From: Bryobacterales bacterium
GTDB taxonomy: Bacteria > Acidobacteriota > Terriglobia > Bryobacterales > UBA6623
Reading direction: 5' to 3'
DNA: 64,000 nt
Assembly (NCBI GenBank): GCA_965237575.1
Contig: CBDEGI010000004.1
Coordinates: 3,541,963-3,605,962 of the forward strand
This document shows positions 7,682-20,999 of the stretch, in pieces; the first letter of the stretch is position 1, and every line of letters begins with the position of its first letter. The position numbers and the translations under genes were made by a program. The notes beneath the pieces were generated by a model. The model did no database searches. It was not told where the DNA came from and saw only the letters and a program-made list of their open reading frames with translations.

Positions 7682-8407
7682 TTAGAAGACCCGCTTGGTA
7701 AGCCGGGATACGTCGAAGCGGGCGGTGTCGGCGATTGCCATCACGGCCATGACACCGGCTTGGATGGGGTCGGTTACTACCAGGTCGGCGGCGTCGGGGG
7801 CGCTGCCGGCCATGTTGAGGCAAATCACGCGAAGGCCTTTGGCGCGGACCTCGCGGGTGGCTTCCTCGATAGCTCCGCCCATCAAAGCTCCGGCCAGCAC
7901 CAACGCTCGGGCGCGCGGCAGCCGCGCCACCGCGCGAACGGCTTCGGCTAGCTCGACTTCACCGGTCAGGGGAATCGTGTCGATTGAGATGCGTTCGCCG
8001 CGCAGGTTGTGACGGTCGGCCTCCGAAATTGCCCCCAGCGCGACCTGACCCACCTGGGCCCCGCCGCCGATGATGATGATGCGCTTGCCGAAGATTCTCT
8101 TGAGGGTGCGCTGCTCCGACACGGACACAACAACCGGGAGCACGCGCAATTCTTCAATGATCGGATCGAGCGATTCGATACCGCAGATCTCGAAGAAGAC
8201 CGTCTCGATCGGTTTTTGGCTGTCGAGGATCGCGACCCAAGTGACGTCACCCCCGAGACGGGCGATGACGCCGGTGAGCTGGTGCATCACGCCCCGCTCA
8301 TTCTTCGTCTCCACCGACAACCCGAAGGTTACCGGTTCCTGTCCTTCTGCTTGTTCCGGCACATTCGCCCCCGGCCTGCCAGGCCGCACAAACTTTAGTA
8401 TATCCAC
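7682..8407 (-). CDS. ACT-domain protein with a C-terminal Rossmann-like domain
   Basis: 241-aa ORF. The N-terminal segment looks ACT-like (GLSVETKNERGVMHQLTGVIARLGGDVTWVAILD). It is followed by RIIIIGGGAQVGQVALG and a C-terminal alpha/beta region. Confidence 0.65.
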   Translation of the reverse strand: MDILKFVRPGRPGANVPEQAEGQEPVTFGLSVETKNERGVMHQLTGVIARLGGDVTWVAILDSQKPIETVFFEICGIESLDPIIEELRVLPVVVSVSEQRTLKRIFGKRIIIIGGGAQVGQVALGAISEADRHNLRGERISIDTIPLTGEVELAEAVRAVARLPRARALVLAGALMGGAIEEATREVRAKGLRVICLNMAGSAPDAADLVVTDPIQAGVMAVMAIADTARFDVSRLTKRVF

Positions 8408-8518: not shown

Positions 8519-9490
8519 ATGCCAATCACAAGACGGGACATGCTGCGCTTGCTGGGGACGGCGGCCGCGCTACCGGCACTGCCGTCCTTCGCCGCCGGCA
8601 AGACCATGCGCGGCGCGTTCATCATTATGGCGACGCCCTACACCGAGGCCAAGGAGGTCGACTACGAAGGCCTGGCCGGCGAGGTCGACTTCCTCGACAA
8701 GAGCGGCGTGCAGGGTATGGTGTGGCCGCAGTTCGCCAGCGAATACCCTTACCTGAAAAAGGAAGAGCGCTTTCGCGGAATGGAAGTGCTCGCCAAAGCC
8801 GCCAAGGGGAAGAAGCCGGCCCTCGTACTGGGTGTCCAGGCGCCGAACACCGAGCAGATGCTCGAGTTCGCCCGCCACGCCGAGAAGGTCGAGCCGGACG
8901 CCTTGATCGCTATGCCGCCCAAGGAGGCGACGTCACTCGACGACTATCGCGTCTACTATAGCGAGCTTTGCAAGCTCGCCAAGCGGCCGGTTTTCATCCA
9001 GACGACGGGTGGCGCGAACGACGTGGAGGCCACTGTCGAATTCATCATCGAGATGGCAGAGAAGTTCCCCAACTTCGGCTATATCAAGGAAGAGTACAAG
9101 CCGGTCATGGAGCGCATGCTAAAGCTCGCCAAGTACCGGCCGAAAGTGATCAAGAGCGTATTCAGTGGCGCGGCCGGACGCGGCTGGCCCTATGAGATGC
9201 GGTATGGCCTCGACGGGACCATGCCCGGCGCGATGTACGCCGACATCTACGCCTTGCTGTGGGAGCTACATCTGAAGGGTGACCGCGACAAGATTCGCGA
9301 GGTCTTCAGCAAGCTGATGCTGATGATCAACCTCGACGCGCACATCCCGGGCGTGCGCAATTACATGTTCAAGCGCCGGGGCATCTTCAAGACCACCAAG
9401 TCGCGCCGGGGGGACTACACCTGGTCCGAAGACGCCATCGCCGAGATCGAGCACAACTTCGCCGCGCTGAAACCGTACTTGCGCGTCTAG
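8519..9490 (+). CDS. Dihydrodipicolinate synthase/N-acetylneuraminate lyase family protein with Tat signal
   Basis: The track ORF is 8465..9490. I prefer the ATG at 8519, preceded by gaggaa, which gives MPITRRDMLRLLGTAAALPALPSFAAG. The body resembles the DapA family (FIIMATPYTE..VDYEGL...GVQGMVWPQ). Confidence 0.8.
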   Translation: MPITRRDMLRLLGTAAALPALPSFAAGKTMRGAFIIMATPYTEAKEVDYEGLAGEVDFLDKSGVQGMVWPQFASEYPYLKKEERFRGMEVLAKAAKGKKPALVLGVQAPNTEQMLEFARHAEKVEPDALIAMPPKEATSLDDYRVYYSELCKLAKRPVFIQTTGGANDVEATVEFIIEMAEKFPNFGYIKEEYKPVMERMLKLAKYRPKVIKSVFSGAAGRGWPYEMRYGLDGTMPGAMYADIYALLWELHLKGDRDKIREVFSKLMLMINLDAHIPGVRNYMFKRRGIFKTTKSRRGDYTWSEDAIAEIEHNFAALKPYLRV

Positions 9491-9533
9491 TGTCCGTGCC
9501 GTAATTCCACCACCGCCGCGCCGGAGGTAGCAG

Positions 9534-11081
9534 ATGATCGAACCTCAGATGATCGAAAGGCGAAACTTTCTCAAGGGTGCCGGCCTGCTCGGCGTCACCG
9601 GGCTGCTCGGCCGAAGCTGGGCAAGCCCCGCCGCACCGTCACTGTTGCAGGTCGGCTATGCCGAGACCGACATCACCCCCGACATCGGGATGGAGCAGCC
9701 CGGAGGGTACAGCAAGGCCTACCACCAGAAGTTCCACGATGCCTGCAAAGTGCGCGCCGCTGTTTTCGATGACGGGAACAAGCGCGTCGCGTTGGTCGGT
9801 ACCGACACGCTGATGATTCCCCGCCACGTCGTCTTGGCCGCGAGAGAGGAGATCCGCCGCAAGTCGGGCATTGCCGAGGACGCCATTTTGATCGGCGCTT
9901 CGCATTCGCACTCCTCCGGGCCCGTCGGGATGGTGCAGCCCGGCGAGTACGACCACGCGTCGAAGTTCGTCCAAGAGCTGGCGTACGAGAAATCGTCCGC
10001 CGCCGATCCGAAGTTCTTGCGCTACGTCCAGGACCAGCTCGTCTCGGCGGTCCTGCAAGCCAACGGTTCGCGCGCCGAGCGGCCCTGCGGGGTCGGCTCC
10101 GGGCAGGAGAACGAAGCGGCCTACAACCGGCGCTTCCGCATGAAGAACGGACGCACCCAGACGCACCCGCGCCAGGGCAACCCCAACATCATCGAGCCCG
10201 CCGGGCCGACCGATCCCGAAGTCGGCGTCATCGGCACGTTCGACGGCAACGGCAACCTCGTCGGTTGCGTGGTGAACTACGCCTGCCATGCCACGACGAG
10301 TCCCGGAGGCATCTCGGCCAACTGGATCTACTACCTCGAAAAGACGATCCGTGGCGTCTTCGGCGACAAGGTGGTCGTGGTCTTCCTCGCCGGCGCCAAC
10401 GGCGACATCACGCAGGTCAACAACCTCAGCCCCTACGTCAATCCGGGCCGCGAGGAGTGGGCCCGGCTCGTCGGCAGCCGCGTCGGGGCCGAGGCCGTCA
10501 AGGTGCTCGCTTCGATGCACACGGGGCCAATGGGCCCGGTAGACTCCGCGCTGGAGGTCCTCGCCATTCCCAGGCGCACCCCCAGCCCCGAACGTGTCAA
10601 ACGCTCGACCGAACTCATCAAGCAAGGGCCCGACAAGGCCGGGCGCAGCGAGTGGACCTTCGCCAAAGAGATCGTGATGCTCGACGCATTGATCGCCAAG
10701 ACTCCCGTGGTCGATGCCGAGGTGCAAGCCGTGCAAGTCGGGCCGGCGGTGTTCGTTTCGAATCCGGCGGAGTACTTCGTCGAATATGGGCTCGACATCA
10801 AGAAGCGCAGCAAGTTTCCGTTCACCTATCCCGTGGAGTTGGCGAACGGCTGTGTCGGCTACGTCCCGACCGAGGAAGCGCTGAGCCCCACCGGCGGCGG
10901 CTATGAAACGCGCCTCACCAGCTACAGTAATCTCGAACGGACCGCCGGCACCCAGATCGCCGACGCCGGCGTGCGGCTTGCGAACCGGCTCACGCCGGGC
11001 AAGGCGCCCCGGCGCGGGCCGCACGCGCCGTTCTCGGGCGAGGGCTGGTCCTACGGCAGCGTCCCAGCCGAGTTAAAGTAG
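9534..11081 (+). CDS. Neutral/alkaline ceramidase-like hydrolase (Tat signal)
   Basis: 515-aa ORF with RBS ggagg, leader RRNFLKGAGLLGVTGLLG, and the GASHSHSSGP motif typical of the neutral ceramidase N-domain. The - ORF 9639..11024 is an antisense shadow. Confidence 0.75.
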   Translation: MIEPQMIERRNFLKGAGLLGVTGLLGRSWASPAAPSLLQVGYAETDITPDIGMEQPGGYSKAYHQKFHDACKVRAAVFDDGNKRVALVGTDTLMIPRHVVLAAREEIRRKSGIAEDAILIGASHSHSSGPVGMVQPGEYDHASKFVQELAYEKSSAADPKFLRYVQDQLVSAVLQANGSRAERPCGVGSGQENEAAYNRRFRMKNGRTQTHPRQGNPNIIEPAGPTDPEVGVIGTFDGNGNLVGCVVNYACHATTSPGGISANWIYYLEKTIRGVFGDKVVVVFLAGANGDITQVNNLSPYVNPGREEWARLVGSRVGAEAVKVLASMHTGPMGPVDSALEVLAIPRRTPSPERVKRSTELIKQGPDKAGRSEWTFAKEIVMLDALIAKTPVVDAEVQAVQVGPAVFVSNPAEYFVEYGLDIKKRSKFPFTYPVELANGCVGYVPTEEALSPTGGGYETRLTSYSNLERTAGTQIADAGVRLANRLTPGKAPRRGPHAPFSGEGWSYGSVPAELK

Positions 11082-11141
11082 GATAGGGCGCGTCGCTAGC
11101 GGTCCCCGCGCATCGCGGCCCGACGAACAGGAGCAAAACAG

Positions 11142-11510
11142 ATGTACAAAGGAATCGAACACACCGCCATCGCCTCTCCCGACCCCGAGGCCCTCGCCAC
11201 CTGGTACGACAAGACGCTCGGCTTTCCCATCGTCCACCGCTACGGGGGCAACGTCTTCGTTCGCGCGCCCGACTCGACGATGCTCGAGATCATTCCGTCC
11301 GAAGGCGATGCCGTCGCAACCGAGATGAAGACGCCCGGCATCCGGCACCTCGCCATCTCGGTCGACGACTTCGACGCCGGCAAGCAAGACCTGGTCGGGA
11401 AAGGGGTGGAGATCGTCCAGGAGCTCAACGCCGGAGGCAACCGCTTGGCGTTCTTCCTCGACCCGGAGGGCAACATCCTGCACCTGATCCAACGCGCTGA
11501 CCCAATTTAG
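11142..11510 (+). CDS. VOC (glyoxalase/bleomycin-resistance/dioxygenase) family protein
   Basis: 122-aa ORF with RBS aggag; IEHTAIASPDPEALATWY...GIRHLAISVDD...FFLDPEGNILHL. Confidence 0.85.
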   Translation: MYKGIEHTAIASPDPEALATWYDKTLGFPIVHRYGGNVFVRAPDSTMLEIIPSEGDAVATEMKTPGIRHLAISVDDFDAGKQDLVGKGVEIVQELNAGGNRLAFFLDPEGNILHLIQRADPI

Positions 11511-11607
11511 GGGTCCCGATCCAAGAACGTGATGGCGCGCGCCTCGCCGCGGAGTTCGGCTATCCGCCCGCCAGCCGCTTCACGCAGAGAGCCATCTCGA
11601 CATTACA

Positions 11608-12432
11608 TTGAGCATCAGCGCGGAGCAAGAACGTTCCCACTACGACCGGGCCTACGGTCAACATCTGGCGGCTCCCGGCCATGCCCTCGCTTGCAGCCGG
11701 GACATCCTGCTGCGGCAGATCCACGACCCGGCCAGCCCGATGTACGAGAGACGTCTCCTTTACGGCCAGGTGCTCGACGAGCTGCTCGCCGTGCCGGTCG
11801 ACGGCCTCACCGCACTCGACTACGGCTGCGGCACTGGCGAATGGGGCGTCATGCTGGCCACCGAAGGTGCGCGGGCCACGTTGCTCGATCTCTCGCCGGT
11901 GGCGATCGACGTGGCTCGGCGGCGCGCCGAGGCCAGCGGCGTCCTCGACCGCATCCGCCTCTGTGCCCAAGACGCGAGCGACCTGTCGGAGTTCGAAGAC
12001 GGCGAGTTTGATCTCGTCTACGCCGGCGCGGCTCTCCATCACACCCTGAAGTACCCGAACGCCTTCGCCGAGCTTCTGCGCGTGCTCAAGCCAGGCGGTC
12101 GGCTCGTCATGGCCGAGGGATACGGCAACAACCAGCTCCTCAGTTGGGCCCGCCGGACTCGCCAACGCCTCGCCGGCGAACCGGTCGAGGCCGGCGAGGG
12201 CATCGTCCTCGGCGATCCTGAAATCCGCCTCTTGGAAGAGCACATGGCCCGGGTGGACGTCACGCCGCTCAATCTGTTCGCCATGGCCAAGCGCCTGTTC
12301 CGCGGACGATTCACCAGCCCCGCCGTTCGGCGCGTCATGCGCCTGCTGGAGGTACTTGACGCCGCTTGCTTCCGCCGGTTCCCAAGCACTCGCAGGCTTT
12401 GCGGCGAAGCGGTCATCGTCTGCCAGCGGTGA
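11608..12432 (+). CDS. Class I SAM-dependent methyltransferase
   Basis: 274-aa ORF with a TTG start and SAM motif I ALDYGCGTGEWGVMLA, then LKPGGRLVMAEG. Confidence 0.85.
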   Translation: MSISAEQERSHYDRAYGQHLAAPGHALACSRDILLRQIHDPASPMYERRLLYGQVLDELLAVPVDGLTALDYGCGTGEWGVMLATEGARATLLDLSPVAIDVARRRAEASGVLDRIRLCAQDASDLSEFEDGEFDLVYAGAALHHTLKYPNAFAELLRVLKPGGRLVMAEGYGNNQLLSWARRTRQRLAGEPVEAGEGIVLGDPEIRLLEEHMARVDVTPLNLFAMAKRLFRGRFTSPAVRRVMRLLEVLDAACFRRFPSTRRLCGEAVIVCQR

Positions 12433-12493
12433 CGGGTACCGCGCCACTTTCCGCCCCGGCACGCCCGAACCGCTCGAGGGGAAGGACGGGCTG

Positions 12494-12606
12494 TGTGGCC
12501 TTTCCAACGCCCTTTCAGGGCTCCCGCCGCAAGAGGGTCCGATCCCCCGGGGTTCCGCCTGACGGCGTCACCCCGGGCTAACATCCAACGCCGCTTCGCG
12601 GCTTGC
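12494..12606 (-). repeat. REP-c element (~112 bp), copy 1 (inverted relative to the copy at 51364)
   Basis: Its reverse complement aligns end to end with 51364..51475. Shared blocks are gccgcgaagcggcgt.ggatgttagccc.ggg and cgggagccctgaaagggcgttggaaa. The internal stem shows paired substitutions between the copies. Confidence 0.7.
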
Positions 12607-12737
12607 CGCGTGCCAGCAGGGTCGAGATCCGCGCTACGGGCTGATCGAGCCCGGCATCTGGCTGTACTCTGCCGCACACTACCGAAACCACGGCGGCCTC
12701 CCCGCCGTAGGAGTAGAATGAGGCTGGGAGAAAACCG

Positions 12738-13601
12738 ATGCGGCCCACACGATTGAGACGCAGACCGATCAGACACTGCGCGGTATGGGCGATGGTTCTC
12801 GCCCTCGCTCCCGCGGGCCTGTGGGGCCAAACCGACCCTGCGCCCCCGCCCGACCCGCCGAAACAGCAGGCCGAGGGTCTTCAAACCCGCGAACCGCCTC
12901 CCGAAAACAGCATCATCGTGCCCCGCGGCACCCGCGTGCCTCTGGTACTCATCAACAGCATCAGCACCAAGAACTCCGCCGCCGGCGACCTCGTCTATCT
13001 CGAATCCGTCTATCCCGTCGCGATTGGCGGACGCATCCTGATCCCCCCGGGCACCTATGTCTCGGGCAAGGTCACCAGCGTCAAGCGTCCAGGGCGCATC
13101 AAGGGCAAGGGCGAGCTGTTCCTGCGTTTCGAGAACATGATTCTGCCCAACGGCACGATTCGCGACTTTACCGCGCGCGTCGGGGCCCTTGACGGACGTT
13201 CTCCCGAGGGTTTCGAGCGCGACGAGGGCAAGATCACCAGCGAATCGAGCAAGGGCAAAGACGCCGGTACCGTGGCGCAGACCACGGCGGCCGGCACGTC
13301 CGTCGGAGCGATCGCGGGCTCGGTTGGCGGCCGGGCCGGCATGGGTATCGGCCTCGGCGCGGCGGCGGGAGCGGCGGCCGGGCTGGCCACGGTACTGGCG
13401 TCGCGCGGTCCCGAGGCGGTGCTCGAGAAGGGTACCCAGCTCGATATGGTGCTCGACCGCGACCTCTATTTCACCGAAGCCGAAGTCACCTTCGACGACC
13501 CCTTGCGCCGTCCCGGCGGCAACGGTGGTGGTGGGGGACCCGACCCCAACCGCAACCGTTCCAACTCCGGCGGCAGCCTCGGCCGCTTCCCGCCGTTCTA
13601 A
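12738..13601 (+). CDS. Secreted hypothetical protein with a Gly-rich tail (core faintly TrbI/VirB10-like)
   Basis: 287-aa ORF with a signal peptide (AVWAMVLALAPAGLWG). Core sequence IIVPRGTRVPLVLINSISTKNSAAGD...ILIPPGTYVSGKV...ILPNGTIRDF; C-terminal GGNGGGGGPDPNRNRSNSGG. Confidence 0.65.
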   Translation: MRPTRLRRRPIRHCAVWAMVLALAPAGLWGQTDPAPPPDPPKQQAEGLQTREPPPENSIIVPRGTRVPLVLINSISTKNSAAGDLVYLESVYPVAIGGRILIPPGTYVSGKVTSVKRPGRIKGKGELFLRFENMILPNGTIRDFTARVGALDGRSPEGFERDEGKITSESSKGKDAGTVAQTTAAGTSVGAIAGSVGGRAGMGIGLGAAAGAAAGLATVLASRGPEAVLEKGTQLDMVLDRDLYFTEAEVTFDDPLRRPGGNGGGGGPDPNRNRSNSGGSLGRFPPF

Positions 13602-13662
13602 GCACCCAGCCGAGCCCGCGCTACCTCAAGGTGCGCGAAGTATGCGGCGTGTCGTGCCCGCT

Positions 13663-14061
13663 TCATTGCTGGGGTCCCTTCTTCTCCTCTGGGACGGCTG
13701 TTTCGAGGTCGGCGATGCGGTTGGCGAGGGTGCCGGAGCGGTAGGCGAAGTCGAGGGCCGTGCGGATGAGGGCGGCGCGGCCGGACTCGATGGCCCGGCC
13801 GGAATGGATCAGCTCGTCCATGGCTGCCGTAGCGTCGGACGCCACCTGTTGCATCTGCAACGAGGCCTGGTCGAGGGCCCGTTGGCGCAGTTGGCGGAGC
13901 CTGGTCTGGAACTGCTTGTCCTGGCTCAGCCAGCGGTGGATCGAGCGCTCGCTGACGCCGGACCGGTGGGCGGCGGCCGCGACGGAGTGGGCCGAGAGCA
14001 AGGCGACCAGCGCCAGTTGCTGCCGCTGGGTGAGGGCCGGTTCCGAGTCGGCGGTCGCCAC
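13663..14061 (-). CDS. Small helix-turn-helix DNA-binding protein (phage/IS-like)
   Basis: 132-aa ORF with a GTG start. The HTH-like segment is LTQRQQLALVALLSAHSVAAAAHRSGVSERSIHRWL. It lies co-directionally downstream of the ROCO gene. An alternative-frame ATG ORF (14165) may be its displaced N-terminus. Confidence 0.55.
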   Translation of the reverse strand: MATADSEPALTQRQQLALVALLSAHSVAAAAHRSGVSERSIHRWLSQDKQFQTRLRQLRQRALDQASLQMQQVASDATAAMDELIHSGRAIESGRAALIRTALDFAYRSGTLANRIADLETAVPEEKKGPQQ

Positions 14062-14234
14062 GGAGAGCTCGCTGGCTGGCTGGAGCTGGCAGGATTTGGT
14101 AGGATTTGGCGCGGTTTTTGGGGTGATTCTAAAGATTCTTTATGTTCTTCCTGTTCTTCAGTCATGGGTCACCTCGCACGGCACCGGTGCGGATCGGTGA
14201 CCTGATTTGGGATTGTGGTGTTCCACTTATTGTT

Positions 14235-14262
14235 CTGTAGGGGCGACGGATCGCCCGTCTGC
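14235..14262 (+). repeat. REP-a hairpin element, variant copy 3
   Basis: ctgtaggggcgacggatcgcccgtctgc, in the AT-rich spacer between the ROCO and HTH genes. Confidence 0.5.
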
Positions 14263-14483
14263 TTTCTTCGCCTCTAGTGTAAGGGGCGGTTGTGGGGTGG
14301 AGGGGTGGCTAGGGAGGTAAGTGGTTGAAACGATGGGGGAAATTGTTTTTGAAAATCTGTGACTCGGAGGCTGCGAGGTGTGTAGGAGGGTTGGCGTGCG
14401 GCGGAATCGGTTCACCCAGGTTTGTCCTCATCGGTATACACGAGCCGACAGGGGTGGATTCAGGGGGTTCCCGGCGCTGTCCC

Positions 14484-17192
14484 CTATTCGGAGTCGGAGC
14501 CCCCGGTACTTCTACTTGTCCGTAGAACCGCTTTGAAGATCTCCGTAAGGTTTTTGCCCGTGATTCTGTCGACGAGTAGTGCGACGAACGCCAGGGCCAG
14601 AATAGGAAATACCACGCTGACAACGCCCGTCGTGACGTTGTCAAGTCCGAGACTGGTCGCGACAAAAACCGAACCGGCAAATAGCCCTAGGATCGACACC
14701 ACTGCCACAACCAACAACAGGAAGATATGGCCAGGTTTGATCTGCGTATCTGTGCTCCGCGGCAACTCCGGTCTTGGTGTGTCTGGCCGCCGCCCTAGCT
14801 CAAATTCTCGGATGCGCTTGTTCTTGTCTTCGATGCCGTTGAGCAGCTCTTGGACCGCGTAGGGCCGCTCGGCTTCATCGGGCATGATCGTGTCGAGGCC
14901 TCGTTCTTCGTGATTGAGGAGGGTTCGATAGCCCACTGTTACGCCCGGCTTGTCGGGCAGTGGGACCTTTTCCTGGGCACCGATTCTCGGGATGGTGGCG
15001 TGGATCCGGCGGAACTCTTCGCGGATCACAGCCAAGGCGTTGCGGCGGAGGGCCAGCACGGGACCGCGAACCGAAACAAAGACCTTGCCCACACTGGTCT
15101 CACCGCGCACCAGGACCCGGGAACCGTCGATCTCTAAGACCACCCCGCTGCGCCAGTACGTGGGGTTACTGGTGAGTCTGTCGTGGGTTCTGACGATGAA
15201 GCGCGGGATAACGCCGTCGGGCAGGACTTTGTAGTGGTACTCGAAGTTGAGTGCGTCTCCTTCGTCCCAGTTCAGGTCGGGCTCGTTCGGCAGCAGCAAC
15301 TCGGGGATCAGAAACTTCGTCCCGCCGGAATCAGGGAAGGCGAAGCACAGCTCGAACTGCCTCATCATGTCTACGATGAACTGCTGCCGCTCCGGTGGGT
15401 ACGTCCCCGGATCGGCTAACACGCCCGCGAGCTCCAGCTTCTCGAGAACACCGCCGTGCTGCATCAGCATGTGGTTGTTGAGGATCTTGTAGACACCGCC
15501 GGTGACCCATTCCGGATTGAGAACCTTGGTCTCCTGCAGTTGGTAAGGGCTGTCGGGATCGTCGAAGTTCAGGACATTGCCAAGATCATGAAGAAACCGC
15601 AGGAGCACTTTTTGATCGGCCTCCCTTTCGACGTTTCGCCTGTTGCAAATCGCGAGGTAGTCTGTGAGATCGATGAAGTCTTTGTTGCGAGCCTCTTGCT
15701 CCAACTCTTCCTTAACCTGGATGTAGCTCACCGGGACCCTATTGTAGACGTGCGGCAGCTTGTGAATCTGCTCTTGGATCGCTGCTTTCAGCTCGGCAAT
15801 GCCTTCGCCATCCGGGCAGGAGGTCTTGAAGAAACCAACCACGTTCGGCGCAAAGTCCTTGCGTAGGCGCGTTTCGTTCAGATCAAGGTGGTTCGGCGGC
15901 TCATGCTTGTTGATGACGATAAGGACAGGCGAATCGCCGCCGTAGCTTTGGATGACGCGCAGCCAGTAGTGGATGTTGCTTTCGTTTTCGCCTTTCCGGG
16001 CGTCGAGTACCAGCAGGTAGAGACTGCGCTTGGTCAAGAAAAACTGATGCGTGGCGTGCATGATCTCTTGCCCGCCGAAATCCCAGATGTTGAGGCGGAT
16101 ATTGTCGGCAATAGGGCCAGCTTTGCCTGGGATTTCCCACCGGCTGATGTTGATGCCTTCGGTTTTCTCCTCCTGCGGATTGAACGTGTCGTCTACCAGT
16201 CGATTCACAAGCGACGTCTTGCCGACAGCGCCTTGGCCAACCAGCAGGATTTTGGCTTCGTTGAGGGGCCGGGTTGTCTCTTCGCGGCCACGGAAATAAT
16301 AAGCGAGAATGTCGGCGGCGTCCTTGGGGGTGGCTTTCCCGTCCACCAGCTCACCAGGATCCGGTCCAAGGATTTCCGGCGGAATGTCCAGCGCGGGGTT
16401 TCCATGCAAGAACAATTGCTTCAGCTTCCCCAGTCGTCGCATGGAATCCGGCAACGCGGTCAACTTGTTGTCCGACACGTCGAGAGACTGGATCCCAACC
16501 AGTTGTCCGATCTCCGGGGGCAGGTTCGTCACCCCAGGCAGATCGCGAAGTACAAGCACCCGGAGCTTGCCGAGCCGCCTGATCGCACTGTTGACCGCGA
16601 CGAGATTAGGCCAGTCGACAAACGAGACCATGGCAAGGGTTCCCAGCATAAAAACGATGTCCGGGACACGAGGAGACAGCTGGCCCCCGACCACCAACCC
16701 TCGCGGGACCCCGCCACTGACGACACACAGGGATGAACCTAGACCCTCGGTCTCAGAGACCCCCCGTCTGCCCCTACTCGGCCCCTGGGGCGGAGCGAAC
16801 GTGATGGAAGTTCTCACCCCACGAGGATCCGAGCGGATGGCCTCAGCCATCAGATAACTCACAAAGGGGAATTGTTCCTGCTCACCCGCACCCCAATACC
16901 CCGCCAACGCGAGGGGGCTGACATGATAATCCAGGGTGGGCGCAAGAGCGCCGTCTAGATTTTCAACGTATTTCAGATGGCCTGGACGGCGCCACACGTT
17001 CACATCGATCAAACGACCATCGGCATCATCGACAACCAACATGACACCCTGGAGCTCCTCAGCTATCTGCTGGAGCAAGGGGCCATACTCCCCACCACGC
17101 AAGTCGTCGGCGCCGTAGTATCTGACGGTTCCCATAGCCTGAGCCGACGACCAGTATAGACCCGTTCCGCCCTTTTTGTCACGGTGGCCCAT
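14484..17192 (-). CDS. ROCO-type GTPase: unknown N-domain, LRR, Roc (Ras-of-complex) GTPase, COR, C-terminal 2-TM anchor
   Basis: This is part of the 1015-aa track ORF 14484..17531, and residue numbers refer to that ORF. LRRs occupy about aa 315-385 (LGKLRVLVLRDLPGVTNLPPEIGQLVGIQSLDVSDNKLTALPDSMRRLGKLKQLFLHGN). GTPase motifs are the P-loop GQGAVGKTS (nt 16238..16212), G3 DFGGQE and G4 NKHE. The COR-like region carries VPVSYIQVKEEL...LRFLHDLGNVLNF...VLNPEWVTGGVYKIL. Two hydrophobic helices lie at about aa 935-988. The start is uncertain: the first ATG after the RT remnant is at 17192 (MGHRDKKGG), with another at 17135. Confidence 0.8.
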   Translation of the reverse strand: MGHRDKKGGTGLYWSSAQAMGTVRYYGADDLRGGEYGPLLQQIAEELQGVMLVVDDADGRLIDVNVWRRPGHLKYVENLDGALAPTLDYHVSPLALAGYWGAGEQEQFPFVSYLMAEAIRSDPRGVRTSITFAPPQGPSRGRRGVSETEGLGSSLCVVSGGVPRGLVVGGQLSPRVPDIVFMLGTLAMVSFVDWPNLVAVNSAIRRLGKLRVLVLRDLPGVTNLPPEIGQLVGIQSLDVSDNKLTALPDSMRRLGKLKQLFLHGNPALDIPPEILGPDPGELVDGKATPKDAADILAYYFRGREETTRPLNEAKILLVGQGAVGKTSLVNRLVDDTFNPQEEKTEGINISRWEIPGKAGPIADNIRLNIWDFGGQEIMHATHQFFLTKRSLYLLVLDARKGENESNIHYWLRVIQSYGGDSPVLIVINKHEPPNHLDLNETRLRKDFAPNVVGFFKTSCPDGEGIAELKAAIQEQIHKLPHVYNRVPVSYIQVKEELEQEARNKDFIDLTDYLAICNRRNVEREADQKVLLRFLHDLGNVLNFDDPDSPYQLQETKVLNPEWVTGGVYKILNNHMLMQHGGVLEKLELAGVLADPGTYPPERQQFIVDMMRQFELCFAFPDSGGTKFLIPELLLPNEPDLNWDEGDALNFEYHYKVLPDGVIPRFIVRTHDRLTSNPTYWRSGVVLEIDGSRVLVRGETSVGKVFVSVRGPVLALRRNALAVIREEFRRIHATIPRIGAQEKVPLPDKPGVTVGYRTLLNHEERGLDTIMPDEAERPYAVQELLNGIEDKNKRIREFELGRRPDTPRPELPRSTDTQIKPGHIFLLLVVAVVSILGLFAGSVFVATSLGLDNVTTGVVSVVFPILALAFVALLVDRITGKNLTEIFKAVLRTSRSTGGSDSE

Positions 17193-17249
17193 CGCGGCCC
17201 ACCGCTCATCCGAGCAGTTACCATTTGAACGGCATCGGCAAGCCCAACG

Positions 17250-17615
17250 CTCGATAGCGCGCAACCATCCAAACCGGCTGTTGTCCAGCGTCTCCAGCGG
17301 GCGACATAACGTTTCAAGCCGTGCCGAGCGACCTGGCTCCCTTAGCTCTTGCTCATAAAGCCGAAGCGTGCGCCCCAGAAAGTTCTCTACCGTCTTCCGC
17401 GCCAACGTCAGCGTGCCCGGCGCGAAGCGGTAGCCGAGAAAGTCAAAACCGTGTTCGATTCTGCCGATGAACGTCTTGTCGGGATGCTTTTCGAGCCGTA
17501 GAACCCGCAATTCCTGGTTGAGCGTCTTCACGGCCCGGGTGTGAGATAGGGCACAAGGAGAACCGTGGAACGTGGTGTGGGAGTATACCGTGCCGCGGCC
17601 GCTCAGCTCGATCTC
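17250..17615 (-). pseudogene. 5'-truncated, frameshifted remnant of a group-II-intron-like reverse transcriptase
   Basis: The frame shared with the ROCO ORF reads ...AVKTLNQELRVLRLEKHPDKTFIGRIEHGFDFLGYRFAPGTLTLARKTVENFLGRTLRLYEQ, which is the RT motif 6/7 and thumb region. The expected next motif appears only in another frame (track ORF 17063..17317: KRYVARWRRWTTAGL). No RT motifs 1-4 or YADD are present; only 128 codons separate this remnant from the upstream gene. Confidence 0.6.
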
Positions 17616-17617
17616 TT

Positions 17618-17877
17618 AGTAGTGGCTCAGTTTCAGCCATGACGGTCTCACGGACACCGGATCAGCCATCCACGGTGGCTCAAGCCGGTGTGTCGGAAGG
17701 ACGCTGAAGCGCCCTGGGCAGGAACGAAGGGCCACGCTGAACCGGCCGTAAACGACCGGCCTACAACGCGCTTCGCGCCGACGCCGCCTGAAGGCGACTT
17801 CAGAAACGACGGCCTTCCGGCACAGTGTGCAGCGCACGCCCATCACCCAGCGTGGCGCAGCCAAATTGAGCCACTAC
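17618..17877. mobile_element. 260-bp MITE-like element with 11-bp terminal inverted repeats and a 9-bp target-site duplication
   Basis: The TIRs are GTAGTGGCTCA (17619..17629) and TGAGCCACTAC (17867..17877). They are flanked by direct CGATCTCTT at 17609..17617 and 17878..17886. There is no coding capacity, and internal hairpins are present (e.g. ctgaag-gcga-cttcag). Confidence 0.55.
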
Positions 17878-17914
17878 CGATCTCTTCGATCTCGCCCTGA
17901 GGGCATTCGGCGGC

Positions 17915-19249
17915 CTAGCGCCCTCTCGGCAGTTGGAAGCCTTTCGGCAGCGGCCGATTCTCGTCACCGCACAGCGCCCGCATGACCTCCAGCTCCGCCG
18001 CCGTCAGATGGTTGTAGCCGTGATAGAGGAAACGCCGCAGCCCCGCCCGACGCGAGGCTTCAAGAATGCGAAGGAAGTCCCCCGCGCCCATCGGGTCGCC
18101 CCCATGGGGCCGCCGCCCGACATCGACCCAGGGCACCACCTGCTCGGGACGCTCGGCGGCCGCCAGGACCGCCCTCGTGGCGTGCTCGACCACCCGGCTG
18201 AAGAACGCGTCGGGGAAACCTCGCTCGAAGTCGAGCGCGGTCTCAACCTGCGGCAAGCGAACGCCCAACAGCATCTCGATGACCTGCAACGCCGCACGCT
18301 CCGACAGGCCCGGGTTCCAGGCGCGCAAGGTCGCCAGCCAGCGGTAGACCGTCCCATAGAGGCCGTCGATGCCGCGGTGCCAGAAGTAATGCTTCGGATG
18401 CAAATAGTCGGCGTAACGCACCAACGCCGGCAGATCGTAGCCACACAACGGTGTGAACACCGCCGAGCGCGGCCCGATGCCGAGCTCGAGGCCGGGTCGC
18501 TGCTCCGTCATCAGACCCTTCAGTGTCTTGATGGTGCCCGTGATGACGTCGGTTCGGAAGCGCAGCCAGTTTGCCAGGCCGTCGTCGAAGCCAAGCATCT
18601 GATAGCTCCCGAAAAAGCCGCGCCCGGCGTAGGCGTCGACAACTTTGTCGTCGAGATTGTGCAGGCGCTCTTCGAGACGGCGAGTGGCGGCTTGGAGCTC
18701 GCGCCAGTCGTAATGCATCGACTCGGCCAGCGGGCGAACCTTGTCGGGCAGGTCGTTGAAAATGTTCGAGCGGTGTCCCGCCGCGATCTCGAACCCCCAC
18801 TCGTGCCAGTCGATGATGCCGCCATCCGCCTCGGGGAACTGCGCCAGCGTGTCGAGGGCGCGCGCCGCCCAGCGGTTCGGGTTGGCGAATCGAGCAAACT
18901 TGTCTTGGTCCGACGGGCCGTAGCCGGCATCGGGACGGAACACCAAGATCTTCCAGCCGCGGCGCTTGGCGTCGGCAAACAGGCGGTCGAGCTTGCGGCG
19001 TTTTCCGGGAAAGAGTTGGGTCGGCGCAGGGGGAGGCTCGACGCCGAGACGCCGGTAGATTCTCGGATCCGGCTGGAAGATGGCTTGGTTGCGTCCGGCA
19101 TCATCGCGGACCAGCATGCGGCCGACCACGATGCCACGCACTCCGATGACTTCCCAGGCGTCAAGGATCCGAGGAAAGTCGTCGATGACCGAGTCGAGCG
19201 GCTGGCCGAAACGGATCCAGGCTTCGAGCTTGGGAGCGTCTTCGGGCAT
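17915..19249 (-). CDS. Hypothetical protein (444 aa), possibly a TIM-barrel-like enzyme
   Basis: The minus-strand translation has normal composition (MPEDAPKLEAWIRFGQPLDSVIDDFPRILDAWEVIGVRGIVV...YADYLHPKHYFWHRGIDGLYG...). The equal-length + ORF 17933..19267 is Arg/Pro-rich junk. Confidence 0.65.
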   Translation of the reverse strand: MPEDAPKLEAWIRFGQPLDSVIDDFPRILDAWEVIGVRGIVVGRMLVRDDAGRNQAIFQPDPRIYRRLGVEPPPAPTQLFPGKRRKLDRLFADAKRRGWKILVFRPDAGYGPSDQDKFARFANPNRWAARALDTLAQFPEADGGIIDWHEWGFEIAAGHRSNIFNDLPDKVRPLAESMHYDWRELQAATRRLEERLHNLDDKVVDAYAGRGFFGSYQMLGFDDGLANWLRFRTDVITGTIKTLKGLMTEQRPGLELGIGPRSAVFTPLCGYDLPALVRYADYLHPKHYFWHRGIDGLYGTVYRWLATLRAWNPGLSERAALQVIEMLLGVRLPQVETALDFERGFPDAFFSRVVEHATRAVLAAAERPEQVVPWVDVGRRPHGGDPMGAGDFLRILEASRRAGLRRFLYHGYNHLTAAELEVMRALCGDENRPLPKGFQLPRGR

Positions 19250-19572
19250 GAACGGTGTGCTGTGTAATTACCGGCGGCGTGTTACCGGCGGTAATCGGCG
19301 GCCTCACCAGGCGGGATGGTTGGCCGGTCACGCCGGTCTGATTCTACCGTGAACGGACAAACCTGAGGGGTTGTCACTACTACGTTACGCTCGCCGAGAA
19401 CGGAGATTTCTTGATCAGGTGCGACACAAGCGCGCAAGGCAGGCGCTACAGCATTTCCTGGGAGGACGGGAGGACCAGCGTGGGAAAGGTGGAGGGACTG
19501 CCAGCAGTCGAAAAGGTAGGGCCGCGCCCGGCTGGGTCTGACGCCCGCTCGTTCTAAAGCGATAACGCCCGA

Positions 19573-20001
19573 CTAGAGAGCTTTCTGCAGGGCTTCGCCC
19601 AGGGTGCCAACTGCTTCGGACTCCGATTCCTTCTTCGCCGGAGTGGAGGAAGCAGCAGCGCTGCCGCCGTCGGTGGCCGGGGTGCGGGCGGGTTCGTCTC
19701 TGGTGCGCTTGCCACGCCGCACTCCGCCTCGGCTGGCGGCGGGTTTCTCGCCCTTCGGGTGGGCCGTTTTGGCCCGCAGAAGCTTGCCGTCGATGGGAGC
19801 GCGATTGAAGCGCTGGATGATCGACTCCATTTCCTCTTCGTTGGGCGCTTCGACGAAAGCGTAGCCCTTCGACTCCTGTGTTTCGAAGTCGCGGATCACA
19901 CGGACGGAGTCACAAACCAGATCACTGCTTTCCAGCCAGGAGCGGATGTCGTCCGCCGTTACCCAGGTGGGAAGATTGCCAAGATAAATATTTTGGGGCA
20001 T
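19573..20001 (-). CDS. RRM-type RNA-binding protein with a basic/Ser-Ala-rich tail
   Basis: I prefer the internal ATG at 20001 over the track start at 20208. RNP2 is IYLGNL and RNP1 is KGYAFVEA. A roughly 200-nt leader precedes it. Confidence 0.85.
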   Translation of the reverse strand: MPQNIYLGNLPTWVTADDIRSWLESSDLVCDSVRVIRDFETQESKGYAFVEAPNEEEMESIIQRFNRAPIDGKLLRAKTAHPKGEKPAASRGGVRRGKRTRDEPARTPATDGGSAAASSTPAKKESESEAVGTLGEALQKAL

Positions 20002-20216
20002 TCGCGTGAAAGTCTTCCTGCTTGGATTATCCTTTCTAGGGCTTCCCACGTTGCGGGCACACAGATGCGCCACAACGCACCCGTACAAGAAGGAGGAACC
20101 TGCTACACAAGGACACCCTGAGTATAGCACATCACTCAAGAGGTTCCACGGCCTCGCGAAGGAGCGACAGATAGGATGCAAGTCCGCGGGCGATAGACTT
20201 CTCTCCAAAGGAAAAA

Positions 20217-20762
20217 CTAGGATTCGAACCGTTTCCGCATACTTTCGTTAAACTCCTCTGACCCACCTCGCGGGATGCTCAGCGTCTGCCAGCCGGCGGA
20301 CTGGAAATGCTTAGCGAGGAAAACGATCTGGCCGATGTGATACGCCTGGTGGGTCAATTGCCGCTGGATGGCTTGGAGTACCGTTTGCGGCTCGGCACGG
20401 ATGAGAATGGTCTTGCGCAGGTCAGCGGGGGTGAGGGATTCCATCGCTTCGAACAGGAGCCGCCAGCCTTGTTCCCAGGTGTCAAGGATCGAGGCGCGCG
20501 TGTCGTCGTCGCCGACTTCAAACTCCTGATCGCGATGGCGATCGGGCTTCTCGCCGTCGGAGGTGAGAAAGTTTGTCCAGCGGGAGTGCAGGTTGCCGGC
20601 GATGTGCCTGACGATGATGGCGATACTGTTTGATTCCGCGTCCGGGGCACGGAAGAAGTCGTCGTTGGCCACTTGCGCGATGGATTTGTCGGCGAGCAAC
20701 TTGAGGCGGTGGAACTCGCGTGTCGCATCGGTGAGGTAGGGCTGTGCGAGTGGGTCTTCCAT
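20217..20762 (-). CDS. DinB-superfamily protein (DUF1572-like)
   Basis: 181-aa ORF; REFHRLKLLADKSIAQV...SIAIIVRHIAGNLHSRWTNFLTSDGEKPDRHRDQEF...HQAYHIGQIVFLAK. Confidence 0.8.
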   Translation of the reverse strand: MEDPLAQPYLTDATREFHRLKLLADKSIAQVANDDFFRAPDAESNSIAIIVRHIAGNLHSRWTNFLTSDGEKPDRHRDQEFEVGDDDTRASILDTWEQGWRLLFEAMESLTPADLRKTILIRAEPQTVLQAIQRQLTHQAYHIGQIVFLAKHFQSAGWQTLSIPRGGSEEFNESMRKRFES

Positions 20763-20814
20763 AGTTGGGCTCCGATGGGCAACGCGACAGAACGCTGGAT
20801 AGCGCGCTACGTCC

Positions 20815-20999
20815 TTAGCCCGGAATTCTCATCACCTGACGGTCGAAGCACGCAATAAGGCCGCCATGACTTCGTTGCGCTTGCTTGCCGTGCTCAACGT
20901 ACTGTCAAGTACGCCTCCGCGCGCCAAGCTTCGCGCGCCTCGTCCTGACGGCCTTCTCAGGCACTTCGCCTCGCCACGTGGTGAGAATCCCGGGCTAGG
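20815..20999. repeat. Small inverted-repeat-bounded intergenic element (~185 bp)
   Basis: The left arm is ttagcccggaattctcatcacc (20815..20836). The right arm is ggtgagaatcccgggctagg (20980..20999). The arms are about 20 bp with 2 mismatches and one indel. The arm start TTAGCCCGG resembles REP-c. Confidence 0.4.

Follow-up and report, generated by a model that had tools for sequence, protein, structure and literature searches.

We analyzed a 64,000-nt stretch of contig CBDEGI010000004.1 from a Bryobacterales bacterium (assembly GCA_965237575.1; hereafter the window), in which one minus-strand gene at 14484..17132, 882 codons and a stop, encodes a protein of the bacterial ROCO family. The predicted parts of the protein follow one another as an N-terminal region, three leucine-rich repeats (LRRs), a Roc GTPase, COR-A, COR-B, a hairpin of two transmembrane (TM) helices and a short basic C-terminal helix. 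The gene, a candidate single-polypeptide conflict sensor, occupies a variable slot between a helix-turn-helix (HTH) gene and a miniature inverted-repeat transposable element (MITE), and the remnant of a reverse transcriptase (RT) gene lies upstream of it. Loci and genomes compared with the window are denoted by an L and a number.

The sequence-only reading of this DNA had claimed an LRR-Roc-COR gene with two C-terminal TM helices (2TM) on the minus strand, and the claim was borne out by Pfam searches, matches in PDB, hydropathy and an AlphaFold model. In the long open frame that contains the gene (14484..17531, minus strand, 1015 codons), Pfam models placed Roc at residues 427-543 (2.8e-33), COR-A at residues 600-746 (4.7e-40) and COR-B at residues 760-899 (1.1e-29), and the LRRs at residues 316-383 were matched by LRR_14 (1.2e-8) and LRR_8 (4.7e-6) slightly under the gathering scores. 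On the minus strand, the Roc domain covers 15762..16253, and COR-A (15294-15734) and COR-B (14835-15254) together cover 14835..15734. The repeats, about three in number, lie at 16383..16586 and were further supported by BLASTP alignment to the LRRs of homologues and by AlphaFold confidence scores (pLDDT) above 80, the scores of COR being mostly above 85. A phmmer search of PDB with the protein returned CtRoco of Chlorobium tepidum (8r4b/6hlu, 1.5e-81), MbRoco2 of Methanosarcina barkeri (4wnr, 3e-78) and human LRRK2, the Parkinson's protein (1e-23), and the alignment to CtRoco spanned both Roc and COR. The Roc, COR-A and COR-B matches identify the protein, as judged from its sequence, as a member of the Roc-COR tandem family.

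The Roc motifs, which had been described as complete, were all found intact: GQGAVGKTS in the P-loop (16212-16238), DFGGQE (16065-16082) and NKHE (15900-15911). In an alignment of 40 clade members the P-loop, the switch-I threonine, DFGGQE and the NK of G4 were invariant; the third and fourth positions of G4 were variable, and the window protein has NKHE where the clade consensus is NKNE. CtRoco (PDB 6HLU, 8R4B, 3DPU) and MbRoco2 (4WNR) share with it the LRR-Roc-COR core and the same GTPase motifs, but no TM tail is described for them, and the G4 motif of the window protein is NKHE instead of NKxD. Human LRRK2 and LRRK1 share the LRR-Roc-COR core as well, whereas the window protein has no kinase, WD40, ankyrin or armadillo domains and ends in a bacterial tail that is predicted to be membrane-embedded.

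We placed the most likely start of the gene at ATG 17132 (MGTVRYY...), and not at 17531 or at the annotated start, 17192, because in-frame stops stand directly before the methionine of MGTVRYY in both related loci, L002 and L050, and because a predicted promoter sits between 17192 and 17132. The promoter, GTGACA-18-TATACT (17153..17182, minus strand), is a sigma-70-like consensus match about 21 nt upstream of the ATG; it was the only such site within 13500..18000, and its -10 box, TATACT, is conserved across the window, L002 and L050. Codons 1-133 of the 1015-codon frame lie outside the ROCO gene and consist of the frameshifted RT tail and the ROCO promoter region. The frame runs on from the RT relic into ROCO by accident, through some 45 out-of-frame codons among which no stop happens to occur, and the 3' end of the relic together with the next ~140 nt probably carries the ROCO promoter predicted by the consensus match. 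The composition of the ROCO gene is atypical for its surroundings, with a guanine-plus-cytosine (GC) content of 58% compared to 66-70% in the flanking genes and a GC content at third codon positions of 0.73 compared to 0.82-0.89.

The C-terminal tail (14511..14726, minus strand) is made up of TM1 (14658-14726), a short loop, TM2 (14571-14627) and a basic amphipathic helix (14511-14570). Two strongly hydrophobic helices had been proposed here, and a 19-residue Kyte-Doolittle scan agreed, with scores of 2.7-2.8 for IFLLLVVAVVSILGLFAGSVFVA (14658..14726) and GVVSVVFPILALAFVALLV (14571..14627), as did AlphaFold, which modelled helices at residues 798-826 and 832-853 of the protein and then the basic amphipathic helix at residues 859-874. 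The tail had no similarity to the TM-effector or SLATT models in Pfam or PADLOC (PADLOC-DB v2.0.0, which was used for all searches with defence models), and its assignment to a known TM effector or to SLATT was rejected on this ground.

We examined what stands at the position of the tail in the family, using the 120 best homologues of more than 6500 proteins that matched at E <= 0.001. Forty-seven of these 120 end in two TM helices and then a conserved FTGxFGEKT-like helix, a C-terminal TIR_2 domain is found in about 35, and the remaining ones include proteins with AAA/SMC-like, Mrr_cat and PNP_UDP_1 (nucleoside-phosphorylase) tails. Swaps of the tail for TIR, nuclease or ATPase domains occur among relatives that are 50-60% identical, and L050, a Bryobacterales genome, combines the same type of N-domain and RT remnant with a TIR tail. 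The swapping of tails among the best homologues supports reading the ROCO tail as a putative effector position. Members of the family occur in cyanobacteria, Gemmata, Acidobacteria, Chloroflexi and other bacteria, the best match in the species collection (48%) being from Gemmata. Among 2.9 million viral contigs there were just two distant relatives; we rejected carriage of ROCO by phages on this count, which is neutral for a defence role in the host.

Coding constraint was compared for a single pair, the window gene and its 86%-identical copy in L002, the latter probably a pseudogene. The ratio of nonsynonymous to synonymous substitutions (dN/dS) was 0.16 in the tail, 0.20 in Roc and 0.27 overall, and by this sequence comparison the tail is shown to be conserved and under purifying selection. 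The LRRs had a dN of 0.31 and a dS of 0.97, compared to a dN of 0.05 in Roc, suggesting a mosaic or fast-evolving sensor end.

The N-terminal region of the protein (residues 1-167; 16632..17132, minus strand) had been described as a domain of about 190 residues, and this description held for a conserved start of about 38 residues shared with L002 and L050 but not for the next 130 or so, which have no detectable relatives. L002 and L050 have in common an N-domain of about 170 residues (40% identity, 4.5e-23); in place of this type of N-domain the window protein has, from residue ~40 on, some 130 orphan residues, which could not be aligned to the N-domain of L002 and L050 and showed no frame-shifted similarity to it either. 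Similarity to other ROCO proteins starts only at residues 277-310 of the open frame, where the relatives have extra LRRs (BLASTP). The region had no match in Pfam or NCBIfam, a search of 1.84e9 representative proteins gave a single spurious match and no meaningful one, no DNA source of the orphan stretch was found among the sequences compared, and a first scan of the JGI metagenomes for the conserved N-domain start found nothing. With no Pfam or NCBIfam match, no relatives and no frame-shifted similarity, we rejected a known or conserved domain as an explanation of this region. The predicted structure of the region is of low confidence (pLDDT 29-48), and its codon-position GC signal is weak. 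The orphan stretch may be a new sensor insert, or else the result of damage.

The variable slot in sister genomes

We compared the region with three to four sister genomes (L005, L006/7 and L020), all from the same kind of sample. L005 aligned to the window over 9001-14362 and then again from 18630, L020 over 9001-14362 and 17683-20831, and L006 over 13674-14362 and 14430-14464. The variable segment is about 14363/14465..17682; it is bounded by a junction at 14362/14464 and, at its far end, by one at 17683 or 18630. At the same slot, L005 (4950-7402) carries a tetratricopeptide repeat protein and a Peptidase_C14-FGE-sulfatase fusion that matched the PADLOC caspase model (4.6e-15), L020 (3373-8567) carries a TIR_2 protein (ThsB, 2.3e-8) and three genes of 167, 256 and 786 residues without a family match, and L006 has another sequence. 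The cargoes of L005 and L020 are candidate conflict systems themselves, and by the alignments of these three to four genomes the slot is a turnover hotspot for genes of predicted immune type. This comparison is the strongest new support for a defence reading of the ROCO gene. The arrangement in the window is probably the older one, because the MITE is complete here, with both duplications, and L020 has only its right part (17683-17878 of the window). The other cargoes probably replaced the window arrangement with small flanking deletions; L005 has lost the 3' part of the gene for a 444-residue protein that lies beyond the MITE.

The MITE itself had been claimed from the sequence, and the 261-bp element (17618..17878, no strand assigned) is identified as such by 16-nt terminal inverted repeats, GGTAGTGGCTCARTTT, and by the flanking 8-bp target duplications, GATCTCTT (17610-17617 and 17879-17886). 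Seven further elements with GGTAGTGGCTCARTTT as terminal inverted repeat and with 8-bp duplications of their own were found in JGI metagenomes (L103-L109). The internal sequences of these relatives are unrelated to one another, except that L103 and L105 are alike. As placed by the alignments, the MITE is the edge of the hotspot and lies outside the ROCO module.

On the other side of the slot, an HTH gene and an AT-rich spacer had been counted as part of the island. The composition of the spacer is indeed unlike that of the window (49-57% GC at 14062..14464, compared to 63%), but the HTH gene (13663..14165, minus strand) and the spacer, which is the upstream region of that gene (14166..14464, minus strand), are conserved backbone DNA. 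Up to 14362, the gene and its upstream region are 83-94% identical in nucleotides to L005, L006 and L020, with an extra 35-nt match to L006 at 14430-14464, and the HTH gene adjoins a TrbI-like gene, likewise backbone, in L005, L006/7 and L020, all of which are without ROCO. We therefore rejected the HTH protein as a partner of ROCO, since its gene holds the same backbone position without ROCO and no HTH gene recurs near other 2TM ROCO genes. The mobile or defence islet that the sequence-only reading had envisaged is favoured by the hotspot cargoes, the tail swapping and the atypical GC content of ROCO; the HTH gene and the spacer fall outside it, and RT and HTH genes are not recurring partners.

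Orthologues of the HTH gene are 163-170 residues long when read from the ATG equivalent to 14165. In the window, a 10-nt tandem repeat in this gene, AATCCTRMCA (14087-14106, minus strand), is present in two copies compared to three in L005, L020 and L006, and the missing copy shifts the frame between ATG 14165 and the HTH, so that only the 132-residue frame from GTG 14061 (13663..14061, minus strand; weak HTH_29/HTH_23 matches) carries the HTH. The exact 132-residue product was found on 11 contigs, and the change in copy number, as read from the repeat, may reflect an on/off switch that works by strand slippage, or else an inactivation that has become fixed. An HTH and, after it, a 38-residue helix make up the predicted fold, with weak fold matches to the phage protein 2ao9 (E 0.055) and the Sf6 small terminase (E 0.6-0.9) and a Pfam Sf6_terminase match at 0.003. 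The HTH protein family (P0121) forms about 30 clusters and always flanks the variable slot.

The reverse transcriptase remnant

The proposal that a decayed RT gene abuts the 5' end of ROCO was upheld. Residues 2-68 of the 1015-codon frame matched positions 225-286 of the 307 positions of the PADLOC model RT_UG4 (7e-19), RT_UG17 also matched, and tblastn with RT fragments covered 17561..17304, extending the remnant to 17561; homology to unlinked RT copies stops at 17270. The UG4-like remnant (17270..17561, minus strand) is frameshifted near 17320, is in frame with ROCO by accident, and amounts to about the last 90 residues of an RT, compared to the motifs 1-7 and the Y/F-xDD of a complete enzyme.

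The RT relatives number 303 proteins, and each of the best 120 is a mere fragment, 73-180 residues long, from the RT C-terminus. Elsewhere, the RT fragments often adjoin DDE transposases, and none of them stands beside ROCO; in the species genomes, an RT remnant was found upstream of ROCO in one of 80 loci (L050), and L057 has a weak and distant RT-like match ~4 kb downstream. We rejected an RT-ROCO operon as a general system on these results, and regard the remnant as a relic without a general link to ROCO. The UG4-like RT family (L012-L019, L002, L050) resembles a young multi-copy retroelement, mostly in 5'-truncated copies. The simplest reading of the RT would be that an RT gene once stood directly upstream of ROCO, that its family is young, and that its retained 3' end, with the ~140 nt after it, holds the predicted ROCO promoter. 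An origin from a diversity-generating retroelement or a group II intron was rejected for want of a supporting repeat or RNA: Rfam gave no match for an intron RNA in 12000..20000 at E up to 1, the relic matched TIGR04416 at just 4.6e-4, and no repeat pair joins the relic to the variable N-region.

Possible functions of the ROCO protein

The statement that no defence system built on Roc-COR with a 2TM tail had been described turned out to be out of date. Kaur, Iyer, Burroughs and Aravind (eLife 2021, e70394, PMC8195603) predicted computationally a class of AP-GTPase (= Roc)-COR conflict systems in prokaryotes, in which the N-terminal LRRs evolve rapidly and the C-terminal domains are of at least 24 different kinds, and the COR+TM+TM architecture is listed there, with about 295 text occurrences in the source data compared to about 581 for COR+TIR, each string being printed twice per row. 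The window gene resembles these systems in the order of its domains down to the two TM helices at the C-terminus, in its fast N-terminal repeats, in the variable C-terminus of its family (TIR, caspase and others in the published systems) and in being a stand-alone gene; it is unlike them in that about three LRRs follow a partly orphan, non-LRR N-region and that an RT relic lies upstream. With LRRs, Roc, COR, a variable tail and fast sensor repeats (the last judged from a single pair of which one member is probably a pseudogene), the gene has the predicted features of an AP-GTPase-COR counter-invader protein, and it is an expected member of a catalogued, computationally predicted class and not a new kind of system. 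The hotspot comparison with the sister genomes is new beyond this catalogue.

A 2019 review of Roco proteins described all identified prokaryotic members as simple LRR-RocCOR proteins, and a Roc-COR-CHAT protease has been reported in the Runella gasdermin system (Johnson et al., bioRxiv 2021.06.07.447441). The Runella system is alike in having Roc-COR in a bacterial system with membrane damage and cell death as output, but there a separate gasdermin is cleaved by the fused CHAT protease, whereas the window gene has neither protease nor gasdermin and its membrane element is fused to COR. In Avs, CBASS and Pycsar systems, a repeat sensor is joined within one protein or operon to an NTPase switch and an exchangeable effector, and short TM modules are among their membrane-disrupting outputs; the switch of the window protein is a predicted Ras-like GTPase with COR, in contrast to the STAND ATPase of Avs or the cyclase of CBASS and Pycsar.

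We favour, with moderate confidence, the reading that the window protein, which belongs to the bacterial ROCO (AP-GTPase-COR) family, is a conflict-sensing switch made of a single polypeptide. The N-region and the LRRs would bind a trigger that is probably a protein of foreign or stress origin, and the bound trigger would shift the nucleotide and dimerisation cycle of Roc-COR in the manner known from the C. tepidum Roco. The changed oligomeric state would rearrange the membrane hairpins and the basic helix, and membrane integrity or potential would be lost. The output would be of the abortive-infection type, and would be enzymatic instead in relatives such as those with a TIR tail. Within this conflict reading, we judge the chances to be roughly even that the tail is an effector rather than an anchor.

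Several points weigh against the conflict-sensor reading. The 882-residue protein had no match in PADLOC-DB, no classical defence system was found within 8 kb of any 2TM homologue examined, and two of the five other loci (L003/4 and L011) have ordinary metabolic neighbours. The two helices may serve simply to anchor the protein in the membrane and not be an effector, and the N-region is orphan and modelled with low confidence, so the sensor of this copy may be impaired. In the closest relative, L002 (86% nucleotide identity), the frame is interrupted by a TGA after the LRRs and before the P-loop (7856-8001), and we found no published experimental work on LRR-Roc-COR-2TM or TIR-tailed bacterial ROCO proteins. 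In L002, an rve-type insertion sequence (IS) is also inserted between the RT relic and the ROCO start codon, and that copy is probably a pseudogene. The patchy, non-syntenic occurrence of 2TM ROCO genes speaks for the conflict reading: their neighbourhoods are not conserved and often contain IS elements, with IS elements or integrases at L002, L008/9 and L010. The expectation that homologues would co-localise with HTH, RT or known defence genes was not borne out, as no such partner recurs beside the other 2TM ROCO genes examined. A conserved housekeeping synteny of the homologues was not seen either, their position in the genome being variable.

The main competitor, which we consider rather unlikely but the most serious of the alternatives, is a physiological membrane GTPase, in which the hairpin only tethers the protein to the inner membrane, the LRRs bind an endogenous partner and the GTP cycle controls a process of envelope, polarity or development, with no part in conflict. 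Several homologues stand among genes for TonB, LpxI, sulfatases and thiamine pyrophosphate enzymes, as would suit such a protein, and the lack of a PADLOC match fits it too, as does the commonness of the family in bacteria of complex lifestyle (cyanobacteria, Gemmata, Chloroflexi and Acidobacteria). LRRK2, moreover, acts at membranes without killing the cell. A tethering role is harder to square with relatives at 50-60% identity that have exchanged the tail for TIR, nuclease or ATPase domains, with a genome position that is not conserved and a slot occupied by caspase or TIR cassettes in the sister genomes, and with the atypical composition and fast-evolving sensor end of the ROCO gene. We think it improbable that the gene is decaying and non-functional, that is, the remains of an earlier RT-ROCO element whose sensor was overwritten by unrelated sequence and whose frame is open because the damage is recent. 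The orphan residues ~40-170 with their low pLDDT and weak codon signal would agree with decay, and so would the truncated and frameshifted RT, the frameshifted HTH gene adjacent to ROCO, and the stop codon and IS insertion of the sister copy L002; however, all 882 codons are open with every GTPase motif intact, the dN/dS of 0.16-0.27 against L002 indicates constraint, a product identical to the window protein is present in NCBI and ENA in several assemblies, and a promoter-like site lies directly upstream.

A two-gene system, in which the upstream RT sequence or its RNA would still work with ROCO, much as defence-associated RTs do with their noncoding RNAs, appears to us highly improbable, and we think equally little of the idea that the RT tail is a regulatory leader or a noncoding RNA left from an ancestral RT-ROCO pair. 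The appeal of both ideas comes from the RT tail, which stands directly upstream of ROCO in the window, in L002 and in L050 although its 5' truncation point differs at each of these three loci, and from the nucleotide identity of these tails, which at 77-89% compares with 67-86% for the ROCO bodies; as protein the tail is not conserved. All three copies, however, are without RT motifs 1-5 and two are frameshifted, and unlinked copies of the RT family are also 74-82% identical in nucleotides, so the similarity may reflect only a young multi-copy element. The RT fragments without a ROCO neighbour, the single upstream remnant among 80 species-genome loci and the lack of an Rfam match tell against the pair as well, and UG4 is without defence enrichment (Mestre et al. 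2022). If it were true, a defence-type RT lineage would be linked to a Roc-COR switch with swappable TM or TIR outputs.

To return to the conflict sensor, the caspase and TIR cassettes in the same slot add independent genomic support to the published prediction of Roc-COR immune switches, and the locus, with one gene of 2.65 kb, makes a compact test case. LRRK2 has its structural models in the bacterial Roco proteins, and to our knowledge their cellular role has never been shown. If the tail were a membrane-damaging output under GTP control, a prokaryotic ROCO protein would have its first function, and the conformational cycle of Roc-COR could be read out in a simple way.

Other features of the flanks

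We noted three further features in the DNA around the slot. About 400 bp of a DinB/DUF1572 region (20479-20882) are present in the window and in L020 and missing from L005, where the gene is a 75-residue fragment. The 444-residue backbone protein (17915-19249, minus strand) has 19 near-identical cluster members and no match in Pfam, NCBIfam or PADLOC; in L001, which is otherwise 99.98% identical, gene calling splits it into products of 334 and 119 residues, probably through an assembly indel. A hint of Acidobacteriota, to which the Bryobacterales locus L050 also points, came from Rfam, which just upstream of the TrbI-like gene (12738..13601) matched an Acido-Lenti-1 RNA (RF01687) at 12546-12603 on the plus strand, scoring 38.2 bits where the gathering score is 37.

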